Source: Escherichia phage BEU35. From it: DNA of 44,569 bases. The stretch's first letter is position 1. Every line of letters begins with the position of its first letter. A program made the translations under genes and the position numbers. This document shows, one piece after another, positions 1,264-11,466 of the stretch. The notes beneath the pieces are model-generated. The model made no database searches. It had not been told where the DNA came from and saw nothing but the letters and a program-made list of their open reading frames with translations. The DNA is taken from the sequence record OM632668.1; one strand, written 5' to 3'.

Positions 1264-1818
1264 ATGTTAACTATGAACGGTCAGAATCAGGGTGTTAAGA
1301 CAAAACACCGGGAATGGCTGCACCACTTCGATAAATGGCAGAAGGTGCGCCACGCGCTGGAAGGCGACCTTATCCGCTATCTGCGCAACGTTGGGAAGAA
1401 TGAGCCGGACCCGACCTACGCGGCACAGCGCCAGGAAGAATACGAGAACGGCGCTATCTGTTACAACTTCACCAAGAGAACGCTGGCGGGGATGGTCGGC
1501 AGTGTCATGCGCAAAGACCCCGAGCAGATTATACCGCCTGAACTGGAGTACCTGTTACGTAACGCGGACGGTTCTGGTGTCGGGCTGTGGCAGCACGCAC
1601 AGGATACGCTAATGGAGATTGATTCGGTGGGTCGTGGCGGGTTGCTGGTGGACGCCCCGGAGACAGCCGCGGCAACGGCAGCCGAACAGAACGCGGGGTT
1701 ACTAAACCCGGTCATTGCATTCTACACTGCTGAGAACATCATCAACTGGCGACTGACCCGCATCGGCTCAGTGAACCGTGTGACGATGGTCGTGTTTAAG
1801 CTCCACCTGAGCTTGTGA
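1264..1818 (+). CDS. portal-like protein, N-terminal segment only (184 codons then stop)
   Basis: Canonical position immediately after terL; recalled resemblance to N-terminal region of P22 gp1-type portals (e.g. DSVGRGGLLVDA); too short for a complete portal. Confidence 0.45.
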   Translation: MLTMNGQNQGVKTKHREWLHHFDKWQKVRHALEGDLIRYLRNVGKNEPDPTYAAQRQEEYENGAICYNFTKRTLAGMVGSVMRKDPEQIIPPELEYLLRNADGSGVGLWQHAQDTLMEIDSVGRGGLLVDAPETAAATAAEQNAGLLNPVIAFYTAENIINWRLTRIGSVNRVTMVVFKLHLSL

Positions 1819-1982
1819 AGTATGAACAAGCGACCGCGGCGCGGGCAGGTAACGGAGCGGGACGTAAGTCCTGAGTGTAGTTACGCTGACGCGTTCGGAA
1901 GGGCCATACTCTATTGCTTGTGTAAAAAGTAACTGGTTTACTGAGATTACGCCGTTTCTATGTTTAAATTATAAGGACTAGC

Positions 1983-2010
1983 GCCCCGCTTTAAGGCGGG
2001 GCTTTACTTA
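1983..2010 (+). terminator. GC-rich hairpin (GCCCCGC-tttaag-GCGGGGC) followed by TTTACTT; putative intrinsic terminator
   Basis: Inverted repeat read directly from sequence in the 208-nt non-coding gap after the portal-like ORF. Confidence 0.4.
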
Positions 2011-2026
2011 TCGAGAAAGGGGAAAC

Positions 2027-2413
2027 ATGAATCTTAAAGCAACTGTCGTGGCAGGAGCATGTTTCATCATCCTGGCTTACACACACGGCATTTATCAGTA
2101 CCGCAGCGGCTGGCACGAAGGCCGCGCTAATCTCGTTTCGCAGCAACAGCAGAAAGCACAGGCCGAGTTAGCGAAGAAAACACAACGGCAGCAGCAAGAT
2201 GAATCAAAGGCCGCCGCCGCTGACAACGAAGGCAAGACGAAATCAGAGGTGATTACCCGTGAAGTCGTTAAGTACATTAAAACGCCTGGTCGCAGCGTGT
2301 GCACTTTTGACGATGCTCGCGTCCTGCTCAAGTCCCGCGCCGTCGCCAACGCCAATTCCATCTCCGGATACGACGATGATGCAGCCGCCGTGCAAGCTGG
2401 CGCCACCAAGTAG
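2027..2413 (+). CDS. Rz: Rz-like i-spanin
   Basis: N-terminal hydrophobic segment, Q/A/K-rich coiled-coil-like middle, contains embedded +1-frame lipoprotein ORF. Confidence 0.65.
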   Translation: MNLKATVVAGACFIILAYTHGIYQYRSGWHEGRANLVSQQQQKAQAELAKKTQRQQQDESKAAAADNEGKTKSEVITREVVKYIKTPGRSVCTFDDARVLLKSRAVANANSISGYDDDAAAVQAGATK

Positions 2414-2522
2414 TGACGCGGACGAGGATTTAGCTATCGACGTTCAGAACGCCGAATGCGTACGGCAACTGAGACTGAAAGTGTTCATGTTGCAGGATTA
2501 CGTGAGGAATATTCTGGAATAG
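2259..2522 (+). CDS. Rz1: Rz1-like o-spanin lipoprotein (embedded in Rz in +1 frame, extends past the Rz stop)
   Basis: Signal peptide with lipobox LASC, proline-rich mature region (SPAPSPTPIPSP). Confidence 0.65.
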   Translation: MKSLSTLKRLVAACALLTMLASCSSPAPSPTPIPSPDTTMMQPPCKLAPPSSDADEDLAIDVQNAECVRQLRLKVFMLQDYVRNILE

Positions 2523-2604
2523 TTGCCTTGCATGTTGGAATAATTTATTCTTGACATGTAAATCCGGGTGGCCCGGATTCCAACGTCCAGGGGACATACT
2601 GACT

Positions 2605-3306
2605 ATGAATCGTTTTTTACGTTATCCGTTCCAGGAAGAAGCTGGAGCAGAAGATAAAGCTGGTGGCGGTGACGCTCCTAAAATGTTCACCGCTGAAGAA
2701 GTTCAGGCGCTGATTGAGAAAGAAGTTGCCGGGCTTAAGGCCAATCAGGAAGCATTGCTGGCGGAGAAGAAAGAAGCCGCCCGTAAAGCAAAAGAGGCCG
2801 AAGAAGAACGGCAGCGTGCGCACCAGGAGGCGTTAAAGGCCGCCGGTAAGATGGACGAGTTTGAAAAGACGATTCGTAGCCAGTATGACCCGGTGTTAGC
2901 CGAGAAAGATGGCCGCATCTCCAAAATGGCAGAGCGCATCCTCGGCAGCGAACGTAAAGCGGTGCTAGGCTCTTTCGCGGGTGACTTTATTACCCCGGAA
3001 GCAGTGGACATCCTTGCGCCGTTCGTTAAGACTGAGTTCGAAGGTGATGATGTGGTTACTAAGTTTGTCGGCGCAGACGGTAACGTAATCACGACTGACC
3101 CGGAACAGTTCCGCAAATACCTGCGCGAACACAAAGCGTTTTCGCATTTGATTAAAGCAAATGCAGCTTCCGGCGGCGGGGCTTCCGGTGGCAAAGGCGG
3201 CGGGGCCGCACCAGCGTTTAAAGACATGAGTGAAGCAGAGCGTTTAGCCCTGTATAAATCGAACCCTGCCGAATTTGAACGGCAACTTAAAGCCCTGAGG
3301 AAATAA
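2605..3306 (+). CDS. capsid scaffolding protein (start taken at internal ATG 2605; ORF track opens at TTG 2551)
   Basis: Directly upstream of major capsid gene; charged A/E/K-rich helical composition. Confidence 0.55.
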   Translation: MNRFLRYPFQEEAGAEDKAGGGDAPKMFTAEEVQALIEKEVAGLKANQEALLAEKKEAARKAKEAEEERQRAHQEALKAAGKMDEFEKTIRSQYDPVLAEKDGRISKMAERILGSERKAVLGSFAGDFITPEAVDILAPFVKTEFEGDDVVTKFVGADGNVITTDPEQFRKYLREHKAFSHLIKANAASGGGASGGKGGGAAPAFKDMSEAERLALYKSNPAEFERQLKALRK

Positions 3307-3308
3307 TA

Positions 3309-4358
3309 ATGGCAATTACCACTATCGGCGATATCGTAACTGGCAACATCCCGGTCCTGGCGTCTTATATGACCGAGGACCCGGTAGAAAAAACCGCGTT
3401 CTTCCAGTCTGGTATTCTCACCCCGACCCCATACGCCGCCGAGATTGCCCGCGGCCCGTCCAACGTCGCTAATATTCCTTTCTGGAAAGCGATTGATACC
3501 TCTATCGAGCCGAACTACTCGAACGACGTATACCAGGACATCGCCACCCCGCGTAACGTGCAGACCGGCGAGATGATGGCGCGCGTTGCGTACCTGAACG
3601 AAGGTTTCGGTCAGGCGGATTTGACCGTTGAACTGACCAGCCAGAACCCGCTGCAATCCGTAGCGTCACGTCTGGATAACTTCTGGCAGCGTCAGGCACA
3701 ACGCCGTCTGATTGCTACCGCGCTCGGGCTGTACAATGACAACGTAGCCGCTACCGACGCATACCACGAGCAGAATGACATGGTAATCGACGTGTCTGCT
3801 ACTCTGGGCTTCGATGCGGGCGCGTTCATCGACGCTACCCAGACTATGGGCGATGCTCTGATGGGCAACGGCGGTGAAGTGCTGGGGGCTATCGCGATGC
3901 ATAGCTTCGTTTATGCGCAGGCACGTAAGCAGCAGCTTATCGACTTCATCCGTGACGCGGACAACAACACCATGTTCGCCACCTACCAGGGCTACCGCGT
4001 GATTGTTGACGACAGCATGACCGTAGTCGGCACTGGCCCGACCCGTAAGTTCATCTCCATCATCTTCGGCAACGGCGCTATCGGTTACGGTGAAGGTTCT
4101 CCGTCCAACCCGCTGGAATACGAGCGCGAAGCGTCCCGCGGCAACGGCGGCGGCGTTGAAACCCTGTGGACCCGTAAGACCTGGTTGCTACATCCGTTTG
4201 GTTACAGCTTCACCAGCGCGGTAATCACTGGCAACGGTACCGAGACTATCGCCCGCTCTGCTTCATGGCAGGACCTGGCGAACGCCTCCAACTGGAACCG
4301 TGTGGTTGACCGTAAGCATGTACCGATTGCCTTCCTGGTAACTGGTGTCAGGGCTTAA
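3309..4358 (+). CDS. major capsid protein
   Basis: 349 aa, position after scaffold, followed by strong terminator hairpin; HK97-fold-like MCP size and composition. Confidence 0.8.
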   Translation: MAITTIGDIVTGNIPVLASYMTEDPVEKTAFFQSGILTPTPYAAEIARGPSNVANIPFWKAIDTSIEPNYSNDVYQDIATPRNVQTGEMMARVAYLNEGFGQADLTVELTSQNPLQSVASRLDNFWQRQAQRRLIATALGLYNDNVAATDAYHEQNDMVIDVSATLGFDAGAFIDATQTMGDALMGNGGEVLGAIAMHSFVYAQARKQQLIDFIRDADNNTMFATYQGYRVIVDDSMTVVGTGPTRKFISIIFGNGAIGYGEGSPSNPLEYEREASRGNGGGVETLWTRKTWLLHPFGYSFTSAVITGNGTETIARSASWQDLANASNWNRVVDRKHVPIAFLVTGVRA

Positions 4359-4373
4359 GGTTAAGCTATAATC

Positions 4374-4400
4374 GAGAGGGACTTCGGTCCCTCTTTTCAT
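4374..4400 (+). terminator. intrinsic terminator after major capsid gene
   Basis: AGAGGGA-cttcgg-TCCCTCT stem-loop followed by TTTT. Confidence 0.6.
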
Positions 4401-4419
4401 TTACTAAGAGGATTCCTCA

Positions 4420-4761
4420 ATGGCAGACGTATTGAAACGACGCATCACCGGCGTCTCCGCTGACGCCCCGGGCGCTAAGATTGACATGGCGACTATTTCT
4501 CCTGCGTCTTTCTCTCCCGCGCTGGCGGCTACTACCGCAGTGACCACAGGTGAAACTATGACGCTGACCGTAACCGTAGCTGGCGGTCTGGAGCCGTATT
4601 CTTACCAGTGGTATAAGAATAACAACGCTATCGCCGGGGCTAACGCGGCTACCTACGCTAAAGCGTCAACCACTACCGCTGATTCTGGTACGTATAAAGT
4701 GGTTGTTCACGATGTGTATGGTAATATTATCTCCAGCAGCACTGTAGCAACTGTGTCTTAA
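4420..4761 (+). CDS. Ig-like domain protein, possible head decoration protein
   Basis: Ig-like beta-strand pattern (LTVTVAGG...YQWYKNN...SGTYKVVVHDVYGN); location after capsid gene. Confidence 0.5.
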   Translation: MADVLKRRITGVSADAPGAKIDMATISPASFSPALAATTAVTTGETMTLTVTVAGGLEPYSYQWYKNNNAIAGANAATYAKASTTTADSGTYKVVVHDVYGNIISSSTVATVS

Positions 4762-4797
4762 TACAACGGCCCTTCGGGGCCGTAATAAGGAAAGGTC

Positions 4798-4977
4798 ATG
4801 GCAGATAATTATGTAATCCGCGAAAAGTACACCCACGTTGATATTGTAGACGGTCAGGTGATGCCTGTTCGCGGTGTGGTAGAAGCGGATGAACTGGTTG
4901 CGACTCAACCGGACAACGAAGAAGCGCACAACAACGGCGGTGGTGCTAAGCGTCGTCGCCGTAAATCAGAGGAATAA
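4798..4977 (+). CDS. small hypothetical protein (59 aa, below the ORF-track cutoff)
   Basis: ATG preceded by AAGGAAAGG at 7 nt; fills the gap between flanking genes; basic C-terminus KRRRRK. Confidence 0.4.
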   Translation: MADNYVIREKYTHVDIVDGQVMPVRGVVEADELVATQPDNEEAHNNGGGAKRRRRKSEE

Positions 4978-4980
4978 TTT

Positions 4981-5493
4981 ATGCCGCTAATCGTGGAAGA
5001 CGGGTCGATAGTACCTAACGCCGACAGTTACATTAGTCTGGCTGACGCCCGCGCGTTAGCGGCTAATTACGGTCTTGAGTTACCCGCAGACGATACTGCC
5101 ACCGAAGTAGCCTTGCGCAACGGCGCTACTTATGTCGGGCTTGCAGAACCGCAGATGTGCGGCCGCCGTGTGTCCGCCGAGCAGTCCCTGGCGTACCCCC
5201 GCACCGGCGTTACGTTAAACGGGTTCCCGGTGGTCAACAACGCCATTCCGAAACAGGTGATTCTTGCGCAGGTAATCGCTGCCGCTACATATGGCGAGGG
5301 CACCGAAGTCCGGGCTAACTCAGACGGTCGCGCCGTGCAGACCGAGCGTGTCGAGGGTGCGGTAACAGTGACCTACTTCAACAATGGCAACAGTGGCGCT
5401 ACGACCGCGATTACCGCTGCTGACGACGCTTTACGCCCGTTATTGTGTGGCGGTCTTAACAATGGTTTCTCGTTTAACGTGTACCGGGGTTAA
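4981..5493 (+). CDS. putative head-tail connector/adaptor protein
   Basis: Gene order between capsid and tail genes; ATG 3 nt after the stop of the small ORF. Confidence 0.4.
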   Translation: MPLIVEDGSIVPNADSYISLADARALAANYGLELPADDTATEVALRNGATYVGLAEPQMCGRRVSAEQSLAYPRTGVTLNGFPVVNNAIPKQVILAQVIAAATYGEGTEVRANSDGRAVQTERVEGAVTVTYFNNGNSGATTAITAADDALRPLLCGGLNNGFSFNVYRG

Positions 5494-5495
5494 AA

Positions 5496-6110
5496 ATGGC
5501 GAAGACTAAATCAGAGATATTCACGCTAATCGGTTCCGAGCTACCGGACAACACGACCGGACTTATTACGCCTGCGAAGTTGCGCGGGGTATTAACCCAG
5601 ATGGCTGACTCACCTATTTACGCCACTCCGGGTGTTAAAGAGGTTGAAGTTCTCCGCGCTGCGTCGACAGTAGCGCAAGCGCCTACCGCAGTAGATACGG
5701 CGTTGCAGGTATCGTTCGGCTCTGCTCAGGGTAGTGCATCTGACCCGGTAATGATTAATGCTGCGGGGCTGGTTACATTCAACACCGCGGGTAACTATGC
5801 CGTTCGCATCAAGTTACAGGCCGGTCGCTCCGGCGCTAGCGGAACGTCTATCCTGTTGTCGCGTATCCTCATTAACGGCGCTCAGTACGGCTCACCAGCA
5901 GCTACGAAACTTGTTAGCTTGGAAACCACCATCCCTATTGAATCCCGTGTAGTGATTAACCCAACCGCCGGGCAAACATTCGCCGTTCAGATTATGCGAG
6001 ATAGCGCCGGGACTAACTTCGGAGGCGTATACCCGCAGGTGGCTACTGTAACTGCATGGGGCACGGCACCGTCCGCGCTACTGGTTATTTCGAGACTGGA
6101 GGCTGCCTGA
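5496..6110 (+). CDS. hypothetical structural protein
   Basis: Tightly packed within head-tail joining block. Confidence 0.4.
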   Translation: MAKTKSEIFTLIGSELPDNTTGLITPAKLRGVLTQMADSPIYATPGVKEVEVLRAASTVAQAPTAVDTALQVSFGSAQGSASDPVMINAAGLVTFNTAGNYAVRIKLQAGRSGASGTSILLSRILINGAQYGSPAATKLVSLETTIPIESRVVINPTAGQTFAVQIMRDSAGTNFGGVYPQVATVTAWGTAPSALLVISRLEAA

Positions 6111-7276: not shown

Positions 7277-8443
7277 ATGGCTACAACTCCTTTTAAGGGC
7301 GCGAATACCGCGCAATTCTATGTGGCGGAAACTACCCCGGGCGTAACACCGGCTAACCCTGTCTGGTCGCCGTTGCGTAACACTGGCGGTGTTCCTGCCG
7401 TAACCCGCGATGCGCTGACTTCCAACGAACTAGACGGCAGCCGTGAAACTACATCCATCCGAACCGGTAACAAACAGGTTAGCGGGGAGTACGCCATCGA
7501 ACTTAGCTCTCGTAGCCAGGATGATTTCCTTGCGGGAGCGATGACTTCTACGTGGCAAGCTGGGGTAGAGATTACTGGCGCCGAAATTACGGTCGCCCCA
7601 GCAGGTAAAACATTCACCCGCGCTGCCGGTAGCTTCATTACTGACAGTGTAGAAGTTGGCGACCTTATTGCGTTCACCGACTTAACCGGCGACAACGCAA
7701 AACCGTTTATCGTGACCGCGGTTTCCGCTCTGGTAGTTACGGGCGCAGGTATTCAGCACACGCTGACAGCAGAGACAGTAACTACTGACGCAAAAACTGG
7801 CGACAAGCTGGAAACCGGTAACGCGTGTAAGACGTTCTCCATCCTGACGTGGTTCAAGGGCCAGTGTGGTAACCTGGACGCGTACATGCTGACCAAAGGT
7901 GTGGAAATCTCTGGCTTTACCGTAGAGCAGGCGGTTAACGCCATGGTCACCGGCAGCTTCCCGTTCATCGGCCTGAGTCAGGAGATTCTTACCGCGCCGC
8001 CGTCTGGCTCTGATTTCTCTCAGGTTACGTTCACCGATGAGCCGTTCTCGTCGGTAGATGTGTCGGTGTTCGATGGCTCCACGCCGTTGCGTTGCGATAC
8101 TCTCACCATCACCAACGACAACGGAGCTTCCGCGCAGTTCGAACTCGGTAACAGTAGCGTGGCGTTCGTCGAACGTGGACGCGCAGCTAACACATTCTCT
8201 ATCTCTGGCAAGCTGTACGACATGGCGATGATTCAGAAGTTTATCAACGAGCAGCAGGTAGAGATTAACTCTATTCTGGCAGGGGTAAACGGGGCTATGT
8301 CTTTCAGTTTGAAACGTGCAGAGCTTACGGCGGTTACACCTGAGATTGGTGGGCCTGAGTCAATCACTCAGTCCATTGAAGGCCAGGCTACCGGCAATCA
8401 GTACCAGTCGTCTATCGTAATTCAACGTATCACCTACGCATAA
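7277..8443 (+). CDS. major tail (tube) protein
   Basis: AAGAGG RBS 7 nt upstream of ATG; 389 aa; followed by strong terminator; position upstream of chaperone/tape measure. Confidence 0.65.
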   Translation: MATTPFKGANTAQFYVAETTPGVTPANPVWSPLRNTGGVPAVTRDALTSNELDGSRETTSIRTGNKQVSGEYAIELSSRSQDDFLAGAMTSTWQAGVEITGAEITVAPAGKTFTRAAGSFITDSVEVGDLIAFTDLTGDNAKPFIVTAVSALVVTGAGIQHTLTAETVTTDAKTGDKLETGNACKTFSILTWFKGQCGNLDAYMLTKGVEISGFTVEQAVNAMVTGSFPFIGLSQEILTAPPSGSDFSQVTFTDEPFSSVDVSVFDGSTPLRCDTLTITNDNGASAQFELGNSSVAFVERGRAANTFSISGKLYDMAMIQKFINEQQVEINSILAGVNGAMSFSLKRAELTAVTPEIGGPESITQSIEGQATGNQYQSSIVIQRITYA

Positions 8444-8448
8444 AACTA

Positions 8449-8471
8449 AGGCCCCTTTCGGGGCCTTTTTC
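8449..8471. terminator. bidirectional-looking intrinsic terminator between convergent genes
   Basis: AGGCCCC-tttc-GGGGCCT stem-loop followed by TTTTT. Confidence 0.6.
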
Positions 8472-9026
8472 TTACAAACCTAATTTTAAAGCAATGTCTA
8501 TAACGTTCGATTTAACGTCACCCGGTATGATGTAGGTGTCGTAATCTTTTACACCACTAACATCGTACAGATAGCCACGGCTATCGCCGATGAACGTATA
8601 GCCGTCACGATGGAGGCGGACGATTCGCACGTCATGCCCCGCGGCGACGATAGGGGCAACTTCACTGGCGAATCCACCGTCGGACACTACAAAAACTTCG
8701 TCGCCGTCAGGCAAGTTTTCAGCAAGATACTTACCGAAATAATCATCGCCGAATACCGGTTTAATGAATTGCTCAGAAATGGCAATCATTAACTGGCGGC
8801 GGGACAACCCATTAAGAAAACCCTCGGGTTTTTCTTTCCGCGCCCGGTCGTCGTAGCCGTCGAGAAATTCGTGGTAAGCATCCTGGCCTAACGCTGCCAA
8901 AGCAATATTGAACATTGGATTCTTGAAACTGGTAGTTCCTTTCGCAAAGCCCATTTCTACCAGCGCCATAGCAAGCGTGTCTTTCCCGCAACCCGCAGGG
9001 CCATTAAGAATAATTACCTTAGCCAT
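8472..9026 (-). CDS. P-loop nucleotide/nucleoside kinase (dNMP-kinase-like)
   Basis: N-terminal MAKVIILNGPAGCGKDT Walker A resembling T4-type dNMP kinase P-loop (SGKDT). Confidence 0.65.
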   Translation of the reverse strand: MAKVIILNGPAGCGKDTLAMALVEMGFAKGTTSFKNPMFNIALAALGQDAYHEFLDGYDDRARKEKPEGFLNGLSRRQLMIAISEQFIKPVFGDDYFGKYLAENLPDGDEVFVVSDGGFASEVAPIVAAGHDVRIVRLHRDGYTFIGDSRGYLYDVSGVKDYDTYIIPGDVKSNVIDIALKLGL

Positions 9027-9514
9027 TATTTATCGCTCCCGTGGGGTTTTAAGTGTGTAGAGTTCCCGTTACAGTCGTATTCGGTAACTGCGTGTGCGGT
9101 TATGCCGAGGTCACGGAAATGCTTTATTACCGCTGGAGAGTCGTCGAACGCACACAAGATTCTTTCCAGTCCGAAAGCACGCAACACCTCTTCTTTAATT
9201 ACGATGTCTTTTCTGTTGTCGTGTTTGCTGCGCATGATTAGCGTGTCAAACCTAACGTTATTCTCTCGTAACCATTCGCGAGTCTCCTCCTCAGCGTCAT
9301 CACTTCGCCCGGTAAGGATAATTATAGTAAGTCCGGAATGCCACAGTACGCTACACAAATGGATATTGTCGTATATCGGAGCGTCATCTTTGCAGGCCAT
9401 GTTAAATGGCTTCCACGCCCACGTTTCTCCGTAGTTATCTTTTGGTAACAGGTGTAAGCGATGGGTACCGTCGGCCAATGTCCCGTCTAAATCGAAAATT
9501 ACAATATCTTTCAT
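9026..9514 (-). CDS. HAD-superfamily phosphatase
   Basis: N-terminal FDLDGTLAD (DxDGT) motif. Confidence 0.65.
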   Translation of the reverse strand: MKDIVIFDLDGTLADGTHRLHLLPKDNYGETWAWKPFNMACKDDAPIYDNIHLCSVLWHSGLTIIILTGRSDDAEEETREWLRENNVRFDTLIMRSKHDNRKDIVIKEEVLRAFGLERILCAFDDSPAVIKHFRDLGITAHAVTEYDCNGNSTHLKPHGSDK

Positions 9515-10641
9515 CCCAGCATCTCCGGTGAAATAGTTAAACGTGCGACCTCGCCATATTCGGCGCTATAAGTAATTACATTTGCACTGCGGCCCGACAT
9601 CCATCCGCCGCGAGAGGCGTAGGCGTCTTTAGCCGCTAAGGTGCGGTGTTGCTCAACAATCATGTTACGGCTTTCTACAATCTTCTGGTGGTGCAGATGG
9701 CCTACGTGGGCGTAGCTGTAAACACTCTCGCCGAACGCTTTACGGAACTTGGCAATCATAACCGGTTCGATAGCGTCGAATCGTGCTTTATGCCCGTGAT
9801 GGAAGAACAGCGTCGTTTTGCCGTGTTGCACCATCTTGTAAACATCCGGCGACGTATCGACGAACACGCGCGGCTCATTGTCGTACAGCGTACTGAACAT
9901 CTCAGCCAACCAAATCATACCCGATTCGTCGTGATTCCCTTGCACGATAAGCAAGCGAACATTTTTATGCTTAACCAACGCCATATCAACGACACGGCGG
10001 ACCATACGAATCATGTAACGGACCAGTTTCTGATAGCGCGTGTCAGCGTCAAGGACATGACCGCTTGCGGGCGTAACGGCATCAAGACTATCGAAGTGCG
10101 CTAAGTCACCAAGAAGATTGATAACCCCAGTACCGGCATCCGGTGCTTTCTGGAATGCTGCATCGAACCAACGAGAGAACAGGTCTTCCGCAATCTTCAT
10201 GTCCCAGTCGTCGCCGCTCTCGTCGGCCCAGGCCAGCATACCGAGATGGAAATCGGATACAGTGTAAAGATTGAGCAGCTTATCGTCCCGTTTGGCACGA
10301 ACGGCTTTAACAGGTGCAACGGGCGTAATCTCCGATTTCATGCCTTCGATCACGGCTTTCATCAATTCAACCTGACGTTCGGCGTCAGTGTCGGTCTTAA
10401 CCCATTGCAACTTAGTGTTGCCGAACTCATCCACCAGTGACGACGTTCCTTTAATCTTATAGCCGTCCGGGACAAGGTGGCTAACATCACGTCCGTGACC
10501 TACACCTTTCTTAGCCAGCTTCGCTTTACGGATACGAATTACGCGGTCTGAGATGCCGTATTTACGGGCGATGTCTACATTCTTCATTCCGGCGTTCAAT
10601 TCTTCCTGTAACTGTTCGTCGGTTATTTTCTTCCGGGCCAT
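9511..10641 (-). CDS. metallophosphoesterase (calcineurin-like) with N-terminal helix-turn-helix
   Basis: Motifs SDFHLG, GDLAHFD, GNHDE, HVGHLHH in canonical order; N-terminal HTH-like segment. Confidence 0.7.
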   Translation of the reverse strand: MARKKITDEQLQEELNAGMKNVDIARKYGISDRVIRIRKAKLAKKGVGHGRDVSHLVPDGYKIKGTSSLVDEFGNTKLQWVKTDTDAERQVELMKAVIEGMKSEITPVAPVKAVRAKRDDKLLNLYTVSDFHLGMLAWADESGDDWDMKIAEDLFSRWFDAAFQKAPDAGTGVINLLGDLAHFDSLDAVTPASGHVLDADTRYQKLVRYMIRMVRRVVDMALVKHKNVRLLIVQGNHDESGMIWLAEMFSTLYDNEPRVFVDTSPDVYKMVQHGKTTLFFHHGHKARFDAIEPVMIAKFRKAFGESVYSYAHVGHLHHQKIVESRNMIVEQHRTLAAKDAYASRGGWMSGRSANVITYSAEYGEVARLTISPEMLG

Positions 10642-10679
10642 GCTTACTTCCTCGTGTTTAGGATTTGTCTTATAGTAGC

Positions 10680-10871
10680 CTACTTCTCTTTCACGTTCGA
10701 GTTACAAGCCCAGATTAAAATGAATACCCACGGCAACAGAACCCACCCGAGAAATAAGTTAGCCATGAATATCGCTAGCTTTGCTTTATGGTTTCGCATA
10801 TGGGCCACAAAAAACGGGATAAAATAAACGCCTACAACAATAATTAAAAAGAACATAGCGATACCGGTCAT
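10680..10871 (-). CDS. small membrane protein (two predicted TM helices); start taken at internal ATG with AGGAG RBS
   Basis: Hydrophobic segments FFLIIVVGVYFIPFFVA and LFLGWVLLPWVFILIWA. Confidence 0.45.
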   Translation of the reverse strand: MTGIAMFFLIIVVGVYFIPFFVAHMRNHKAKLAIFMANLFLGWVLLPWVFILIWACNSNVKEK

Positions 10872-11049
10872 AACATAACTCCTGATTTGAGATAACATCG
10901 TTGGTGTAAGTGAATAGTACGCTATTATATTGGGGAGTGCAAGTAGTGTGCTAGAATAATTTTGCGCCTAGTGTCGCACACGAAAAGCGGGTGGTTCCCG
11001 TCTGGCGCATTTCCTTTAACCAGTAACCTCTTAACCAAAGGATTAAAGA

Positions 11050-11466
11050 ATGAAACTTTCTGATTTTTATTACGAAGCGGAAGCCGAAAAGGGCGCACGT
11101 ATGCCGATACCGCTAAAAGACGGTACTGATTCCGGGGAATGGCTTAATGTTGTTTCTCCTGAGGCGGACGTTGCCGTTAAGGCTATGCGCGCGTTCACCC
11201 TTGCATACCGGGCAGTATTAGGGAAATTAAAACCGCTTCGTGATAAGTGCGAAGAGATGAAAGATTTCTCTGAATACAACCTGAAGATGGAAGACGCGGC
11301 GACGGACCTTAACCGTCAGTTAGCGATTGAATTGGTTAACGGGTGGAGCCTTGACGACGAATTCAATAAAGAGAATCTGAACACACTCCTGACGCAATAT
11401 AAACGACTCGCGGAACTTGTTGTTGTGTTTCATAACGAACAACTGCACCAGCTACAGGAAAAGTAG
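11050..11466 (+). CDS. tail assembly chaperone (G-like)
   Basis: Immediately upstream of tape measure gene; downstream ORF open in the -1 frame. Confidence 0.55.
   Translation: MKLSDFYYEAEAEKGARMPIPLKDGTDSGEWLNVVSPEADVAVKAMRAFTLAYRAVLGKLKPLRDKCEEMKDFSEYNLKMEDAATDLNRQLAIELVNGWSLDDEFNKENLNTLLTQYKRLAELVVVFHNEQLHQLQEK

Follow-up and report, generated by a model that had tools for sequence, protein, structure and literature searches.

A minus-strand cassette between the tail genes of Escherichia phage BEU35 encodes a predicted dNMP kinase, a Pnkp-type phosphatase and a nuclease-like metallophosphoesterase

Results

Four minus-strand genes separate the tail tube gene from the tail chaperone genes

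The window analyzed here is the whole stretch of 44,569 nucleotides from Escherichia phage BEU35 (OM632668.1). Between its tail tube gene and its tail chaperone gene, four open reading frames (ORFs) occupy positions 8472-10898 of the minus strand. We propose, at about an even chance of being right, that three enzymes encoded there feed phage DNA synthesis by deoxynucleotide salvage and that the fourth product, a membrane protein, has a separate role. The proposal is supported by the linkage of the genes for a metallophosphoesterase (MPE), a HAD phosphatase and a deoxynucleoside monophosphate (dNMP) kinase, by the intact motifs of the MPE and its structural likeness to nucleases, by the T4 Pnkp phosphatase residues kept in the HAD, and by an orthologue of the kinase whose activity has been proven. 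The four genes are as follows.

8472-9026, minus strand: predicted dNMP kinase (DNK) of the T4 gp1 type, P-loop GPAGCGK15DT, 184 amino acids
9026-9514, minus strand: predicted stand-alone HAD (DxDxT) phosphatase of the T4 Pnkp 3'-phosphatase type, 162 amino acids
9511-10641, minus strand: HTH-linker-MPE protein, nuclease-like by its model, 376 amino acids
10680-10871, minus strand: Imm_superinfect-family membrane protein with two hydrophobic helices, 63 amino acids

An initial annotation, made from the letters of the DNA, had reported four minus-strand genes at this place. All four were recovered as ORFs, and strong PHROG and Pfam matches indicate that they are not chance ORFs. The domain calls of that annotation (HTH plus calcineurin-type MPE, HAD phosphatase with DxDGT, P-loop kinase and two-helix membrane protein) were also correct. 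Positions 8300-11200 match Escherichia phage BEU33 with 100% identity, and their identity to many Kagunavirus genomes is 87-96%; judged by similarity, the source of the window is a Kagunavirus (Guernseyvirinae) coliphage. In the annotated relative Golestan, the plus strand carries the head and tail genes, four minus-strand genes form a block that separates the tail tube gene from the tail assembly chaperones, and the replication genes, further along, are on the minus strand too. The stop codon of the MPE gene and the start codon of the HAD gene overlap (ATGA), as do the stop codon of the HAD gene and the start codon of the kinase gene (TAATG), which suggests coupled translation of the three. 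The four genes, oriented as the replication genes are, form one operon, probably of the early or middle class.

The kinase resembles a proven dNMP kinase

The kinase matched the PHROG family of dNMP kinases (phrog_139, 7e-45), and its P-loop, GPAGCGK15DT, fits the pattern GxxxxGK[DST] with the catalytic lysine. G12, G14, K15 and D16 were invariant among 39 homologues. By structure comparison, the fold was closest to dNMP kinase of the T4 gp1 type and not to polynucleotide kinase; the kinase of T4 Pnk was absent from the top 60 structural matches. T4 gp1 (PDB 1dek) shares this fold but only 21% sequence identity, is longer (241 versus 184 amino acids), and was missed by the PDB sequence searches, both single-sequence and profile, which returned P-loop matches only.

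The closest characterized relative is gp58 (R1DNK) of phage Rao1, which phosphorylates dAMP, dGMP, dCMP and dTMP in a reaction requiring Lys15, raises dATP during infection, and is the trigger of the Kongming KomABC defence (bioRxiv 10.1101/2024.12.20.629578). Because the window kinase is 50% identical to gp58 over its full length (E 3e-61) and has the same K15, we assign it as a dNMP kinase. This supports the salvage or host-DNA degradation option of the initial annotation, which had left the choice open between that role and end-healing of the T4 Pnk type. These genes appear in many GenBank records under the names 'polynucleotide kinase', 'ATPase' or 'replication factor C'. By analogy with gp58, possession of the kinase would also carry a cost, its family being sensed as a trigger by Kongming (KomABC).

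The phosphatase retains the catalytic residues of T4 Pnkp

The HAD protein matched PNK phosphatase in PHROG (3e-64) and HAD_PNKP in Pfam (PF25109, 3.3e-20, 73.1 bits versus a gathering cut-off of 27.6), and its PDB matches were Pnkp1 (4xrp, 4e-6) and T4 Pnk (1ltq, 2e-3). Residues D8, D10, R19, T68, R70, D103, K107, D124 and D125 align to the catalytic set of T4 Pnkp, that is, to Asp165, Asp167, Arg176, Ser211 (Thr in the window protein), Arg213, Asp254, Lys258, Asp277 and Asp278, respectively. Compared with the T4-type PseT, the full phosphatase set is retained: nucleophile and acid-base Asp, Ser/Thr, two Arg, Lys, and Mg-binding Asp. The protein is predicted to be a stand-alone 3'-phosphatase-type enzyme. 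In T4 Pnkp the phosphatase domain is fused to the Pnk kinase, whereas the window HAD is neither fused to nor paired with a polynucleotide 5'-kinase domain, the adjacent kinase being of the dNMP kinase family. It further differs from T4 Pnkp in having about 15 additional residues after motif I, an insert that is common to stand-alone phage HADs.

Two variants of this gene were seen elsewhere. The T1-like phage Kalemo (locus positions 2355-3065) encodes a longer HAD of 236 amino acids with a C-terminal extension, and in some T1-like phages a long HAD gene lies 0.6-2 kb upstream of the kinase gene, with small ORFs between them, far from the MPE gene.

The MPE has intact metal-binding motifs and a nuclease-like fold

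The MPE gave a strong PHROG match (3.5e-167) to 'DNA repair exonuclease'; its Pfam scores were under the cut-offs and NCBIfam returned nothing useful. The motifs DxH, GD, GNH[DE], H and GHxH are present in this order, the metal-binding motifs being intact, and each MPE motif was invariant among 41 diverse homologues. The family is very large, with 4624 clusters at 50% identity. A predicted model (pLDDT 90.9) consists of three N-terminal helices, a linker made of a beta-hairpin and a helix, and the MPE core. The N-terminal helices had weak matches to HTH domains of the GerE/FixJ/sigma-4 type.

The closest folds in a structure search were all nucleases (PolD DP1, SbcD and Mre11), from which we infer that the MPE is nuclease-like. 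The likeness to Mre11/SbcD and PolD DP1 is one of fold, since single-sequence and profile searches against PDB chains found only weak HTH matches and no MPE match. The N-terminal HTH and the beta-hairpin/helix linker set the window protein apart from Mre11, SbcD and DP1. No Rad50/SbcC or SMC-like partner was found among the Golestan annotations, nor did a capping domain emerge from the model, which ends at the MPE core and was not specifically analyzed for one. The initial annotation had proposed profile searches and structure prediction as a means of separating the candidate activities, and these pointed to a kinase of the dNMP kinase type, a HAD of the Pnkp 3'-phosphatase type, and an MPE nearest the Mre11/SbcD/DP1 nucleases.

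In Drexlerviridae the MPE is persistent (508 of 522 genomes; PMC13164509). Where it occurs alone, its gene usually closes the replication module or precedes lysis or terminase genes. An MPE nuclease of Pseudomonas putida leaves mixed 3'-OH and 3'-PO4 ends (PMC7826289), so a nuclease of this kind would provide a 3'-phosphatase with a substrate. No escape mutants in the MPE turned up in a literature search.

The MPE of Jerseyvirus SE129_1NRH (locus 3501-4655) is mosaic. Its residues 1-125, comprising the HTH and linker, are almost identical to those of SETP7 (locus 3501-4631), and its catalytic domain is only about 55% identical to that of the window MPE, a pattern that suggests recombination at the domain boundary.

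The three enzyme genes are linked in other phage families

The order HTH-MPE, HAD_PNKP, DNK was also found in Rao1 (gp56-58, Drexlerviridae), in Webervirus KOX1 (orf35-37) and in the Autographiviridae podovirus Ahp1 (gp25-27), where the genes adjoin exo- and endonuclease genes. The Ahp1 MPE is unrecognizable by BLAST and matches Pfam Metallophos and phrog_221. Among 80 kinase-bearing loci of viral contigs, which are not independent (16 are Kagunavirus), 55 had a HAD gene upstream of the kinase gene and on its strand, and 25 had the trio contiguous. In Drexlerviridae lacking the SH3 gene, PNK plus dNMP kinase is the commonest cargo just after the exonuclease, an arrangement read by the authors as nucleotide supply (PMC13164509).

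The Rao1 trio is the closest counterpart of the window trio, with the same genes in the same order (kinase 50%, HAD 50% and MPE about 45% identical); only gp58 has been studied. Its setting differs: the Rao1 genes are located between replication and lysis genes, on the same strand as their neighbours, with short intergenic gaps and without an imm-like gene.

The pre-early set of T5 was also compared. It groups, in one transcription unit, A2 (DNA-binding), T5.005 (two transmembrane segments), A1 (required for host DNA degradation) and Dmp (dNMP phosphatase). The motifs GDxH, GD, NHD, HGH and GHxH occur in this order in the C-terminal half of A1 (T5 locus 1706-3376). The profile match of A1 to the MPE family was only local (22 columns at motif III, probability 19%), A1 was not visibly returned by a BFVD fold search, and no homology was found between A2 and the HTH or between T5.005 and the Imm-like protein. 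T5 moreover excretes nucleosides, whereas the window set includes a kinase. The likeness of the two sets would be one of architecture only.

The cassette occupies a variable slot, in which the HAD and kinase genes form a replaceable unit

The initial annotation had supposed that the tail tube and chaperone genes are normally contiguous, and they are indeed adjacent in a distant relative, Vibrio phage 1.198.A. In Guernseyvirinae, the genomes compared indicate that the interval between them is a common, variable slot for opposite-strand cargo. We surveyed 31 loci of viral contigs in which the whole slot was captured. The slot ranged from 388 to 3792 bp; the MPE was present in 30 of the 31 loci and the Imm-like gene in 24, and the HAD and kinase genes were found in nine, always together. 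Four layouts illustrate the variation.

Serratia phage Otaku: one ORF of 108 amino acids
SETP7: imm, MPE, ORF of 76 amino acids
SE129_1NRH: imm, MPE, HNH, ORF of 76 amino acids, Ant
phiSD1: a different first gene, MPE (96% identical to the window MPE), two small ORFs

Homology between the window and its close relative phiSD1 breaks off precisely at the stop codon of the MPE gene (9511) and picks up again at 8475, which establishes the HAD-kinase pair as a cleanly bounded, replaceable unit. The same contrast was seen in phage database records, with a tube protein at least 60% identical to that of the window in about 494, an MPE at least 80% identical in 291, and a kinase or HAD at least 80% identical in 52-56. 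The slot may be viewed as a near-constant part, the HTH-MPE gene usually preceded by the Imm-like gene, to which an accessory pair, HAD and kinase, is added.

These comparisons divide the suggestion of the initial annotation that the cassette is a moron-type acquisition. It holds for the HAD-kinase pair, which is missing from most slots and exactly replaced in phiSD1, but not for the MPE, which is nearly constant in the slot and near-core in Drexlerviridae. As to signals of its own, the cassette has a strong terminator hairpin and, upstream, a lone possible -10 hexamer. The G+C content of the slot shows a mild dip (0.43-0.46 versus about 0.51), and no clear foreign signature was found in its base composition.

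Several other features of the slot were recorded. In IMGVR_UViG_2162886012_000023 it is essentially empty: the tail tube gene is 388 bp from the conserved RNA-motif core, and MPE, HAD, kinase and Imm-like genes are all missing. In phiSD1 a 108-amino-acid ORF (locus 55-381) replaces the Imm-like gene; Otaku has its 108-amino-acid ORF at locus 5683-6009, and neither had a Pfam match. The 76-amino-acid ORF occurs where HAD and kinase are absent (SETP7 locus 4628-4858, SE129_1NRH 5181-5411 and phiSD1 1574-1804) and matches only about 70 C-terminal residues of the longer PHROG families phrog_2452 and phrog_17613 'ATPase'. The idea that this ORF, which follows the MPE gene in Jerseyvirus, is a decayed kinase was rejected (hhalign probability 0.1%).

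The membrane protein belongs to a superinfection immunity family

The first gene of the operon encodes a protein with two hydrophobic stretches that matched Imm_superinfect in Pfam (PF14373, 1.6e-13, 50.8 bits versus a cut-off of 27.9) and immunity to superinfection in PHROG (phrog_1039, 1.3e-23). This family assignment points to a separate function of the superinfection-exclusion type. The longest ORF extends from 10680 to 10898 (72 amino acids), the start given in the initial annotation. The gene is real, but its start is most likely the second ATG, at 10871 (63 amino acids), because an AGGAG Shine-Dalgarno sequence lies 7 nucleotides upstream from it and the Golestan annotation agrees.

A probable terminator and a weak promoter candidate flank the operon

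Three non-coding elements were noted around the four genes.

8448-8467, both strands: G+C-rich hairpin with T runs on both sides, likely bidirectional intrinsic terminator
10924-10929, minus strand: perfect TATAAT hexamer upstream of the operon, possible -10 element
10961-11025, plus strand: int-alpA-like structured RNA motif (Rfam RF02996), a neighbour outside the operon, upstream of the chaperone ATG at 11050

The hairpin, located between the convergent tail tube and kinase genes and conserved in relatives, has 8 bp, of which six are G-C pairs. It was called as a terminator on both strands, in agreement with the bidirectional terminator of the initial annotation, with folding energies of -15.4 kcal/mol (plus strand) and -19.9 kcal/mol (minus strand) and z scores of -3.5 and -3.9; none of 200 shuffled sequences folded as well. 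In the SE129_1NRH slot (locus 5416-5441), a second, inverted copy of the hairpin sequence adjoins the Ant gene, which fits the idea that cargo units bring terminators of their own.

The TATAAT hexamer that the initial annotation had taken as part of the regulatory region of the cassette is present (10929..10924 on the minus strand), but it is weak evidence for a promoter. The whole window contains 14 copies versus 18.5 ± 4.2 expected by chance, no acceptable -35 element accompanies this one, and a promoter scan made no call there. The Jerseyvirus counterpart is AATAGT, and TTGCAC-N17-TACTAT is an alternative in those phages. A role as a -10 element is possible.

The int-alpA-like RNA motif is situated in the intergenic region from which the operon and the tail chaperone gene diverge, with a score of 36.6 bits versus a gathering threshold of 35.8, and was also found in Golestan. 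In an alignment of 12 distinct variants out of 44 Guernseyvirinae copies, 94% of the cells were paired and 4 pairs were changed on both sides, slid controls being near zero; the covariation is modest, with few independent events behind the changes. The fold is thermodynamically ordinary (z -1.3). The context differs from the int/alpA setting that names the Rfam family. An extended -10-like sequence, TGcTAGAAT, precedes the motif at 10949-10957, and three TAACC repeats (11017-11021, 11024-11028 and 11032-11036) reach the ribosome binding site of the chaperone gene.

Discussion

According to the salvage proposal, the MPE would cut DNA, probably that of the host, the HAD would strip 3'-phosphates from breakdown products or ends, and the kinase would convert 5'-dNMPs into dNDPs, as has been shown for its 50%-identical orthologue, leaving the last step to dNTPs to the host Ndk. 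T1 and TLS are known to degrade the host genome and to reuse its nucleotides, the responsible genes being unidentified (PMC11447400). T5 A1, without which T5 does not degrade host DNA, has the MPE motifs in order and lends some support too, although its profile match to the family is local. A more ambitious version, which we put forward tentatively and regard as rather unlikely, is that the HTH-MPE is the nuclease by which T1-like and Jersey-like phages break down the host chromosome, and that MPE, HAD and kinase act, in gene order, as three successive steps that lead from host DNA to dNDPs. The HAD would then tidy up the 3'-phosphates left by an MPE that is 'ambidextrous' in the manner of the Pseudomonas putida enzyme.

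Several observations weigh against salvage as the function of the cassette. The window enzymes are assigned by homology. Deletion of dnk from Rao1 has no measurable fitness cost, the gene being dispensable (bioRxiv 10.1101/2024.12.20.629578), so salvage would be at most auxiliary. Most relatives carry the MPE without HAD and kinase, and the main role of the MPE therefore need not be nucleotide supply. A Pnkp-type HAD classically acts on polynucleotide ends, and its action on mononucleotide products would be a departure from this. Finally, the only hint of host-DNA degradation in Guernseyvirinae is their sensitivity to Ec2ApeA, which is activated by deoxydinucleotides.

The distribution of the MPE gives weight to a serious alternative, although on balance we judge it unlikely: the MPE would be a phage DNA-processing nuclease acting in replication, recombination or repair, in an Mre11/SbcD-like or proofreading-like manner and possibly HTH-directed or autoregulated, and the HAD-kinase pair would be unrelated cargo that landed downstream. 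The MPE is core in both Drexlerviridae and Guernseyvirinae regardless of HAD and kinase, it is usually encoded at the end of the replication module, its top folds include the PolD proofreading exonuclease as well as SbcD and Mre11, and the site right after its gene holds many cargos (SH3, HNH, Ant and small ORFs). Chance landing is nevertheless hard to credit for an order that recurs in three phage families, in one of them with an MPE beyond the reach of BLAST, and the codon overlaps suggest coupled expression; nor is a Rad50/SbcC-like partner annotated in Golestan. A protective role through nucleotide pools, akin to the counter-defence function suggested by the initial annotation, appears improbable. 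The kinase would re-phosphorylate dNMPs and thereby resist dNTP-depleting defences, or the HAD, like Dmp, would remove the dNMPs sensed by Kongming, PUA-Cal-HAD or ApeA. Defence systems that deplete dNTPs or sense nucleotides from DNA breakdown do exist, the dNMP phosphatase Dmp of T5 has been proven to counter Kongming and co-occurs with phage DNKs, and the HAD-kinase pair has the accessory, patchy distribution that is frequent among anti-defence genes. However, Rao1, which carries the trio with its HAD (gp57) beside the DNK, is fully sensitive to Kongming, and escape required loss of the kinase, the very member whose family triggers this defence. The residues of the HAD are those of a Pnkp-type 3'-phosphatase and not of the Dmp family, T5 Dmp having no Pfam match, and a PADLOC search for defence systems returned no matches. 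The sensitivity of Rao1, with its HAD, led us to reject the HAD as a Dmp-like anti-Kongming factor for the main explanation, and counter-defence is unsupported.

The end-healing option of the initial annotation fared worst and is, in our estimation, very improbable. It would make the HAD and kinase a split polynucleotide kinase-phosphatase that heals RNA or DNA ends, such as breaks made by anticodon nucleases, with the MPE serving as a 2',3'-cyclic phosphodiesterase, the part it plays in bacterial Pnkp. In its favour, the HAD has all the catalytic residues of a genuine Pnkp-type phosphatase, many GenBank records say 'polynucleotide kinase', and bacterial Pnkp uses an MPE domain as 2',3'-phosphatase (PMC2190708, PMC3675462). 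The kinase is of the wrong family for this role, with a dNMP-kinase fold, a dNMP kinase as orthologue and no T4 Pnk kinase among its leading structural matches. Moreover, the 78 coding sequences annotated in Golestan, near-identical to the window, include no RNA or DNA ligase; the window itself was not scanned gene by gene. In E. coli, RtcB seals 3'-P/5'-OH ends directly, so that healing without a phage ligase would not help. The cassette is thus not an RNA-repair kit, nor is it demonstrated to act in counter-defence.

For annotation, the finding means that the kinase should be recorded as a dNMP kinase, contrary to the labels 'polynucleotide kinase', 'ATPase' and 'replication factor C'. The cassette is otherwise an ordinary, largely known and widely distributed phage nucleotide-metabolism module. 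Kagunaviruses that carry the HAD-kinase pair should be visible to Kongming-type defences, whereas relatives without the pair, such as phiSD1, should not. The MPE, for its part, becomes a candidate for the gene that degrades the host chromosome in T1-like phages.

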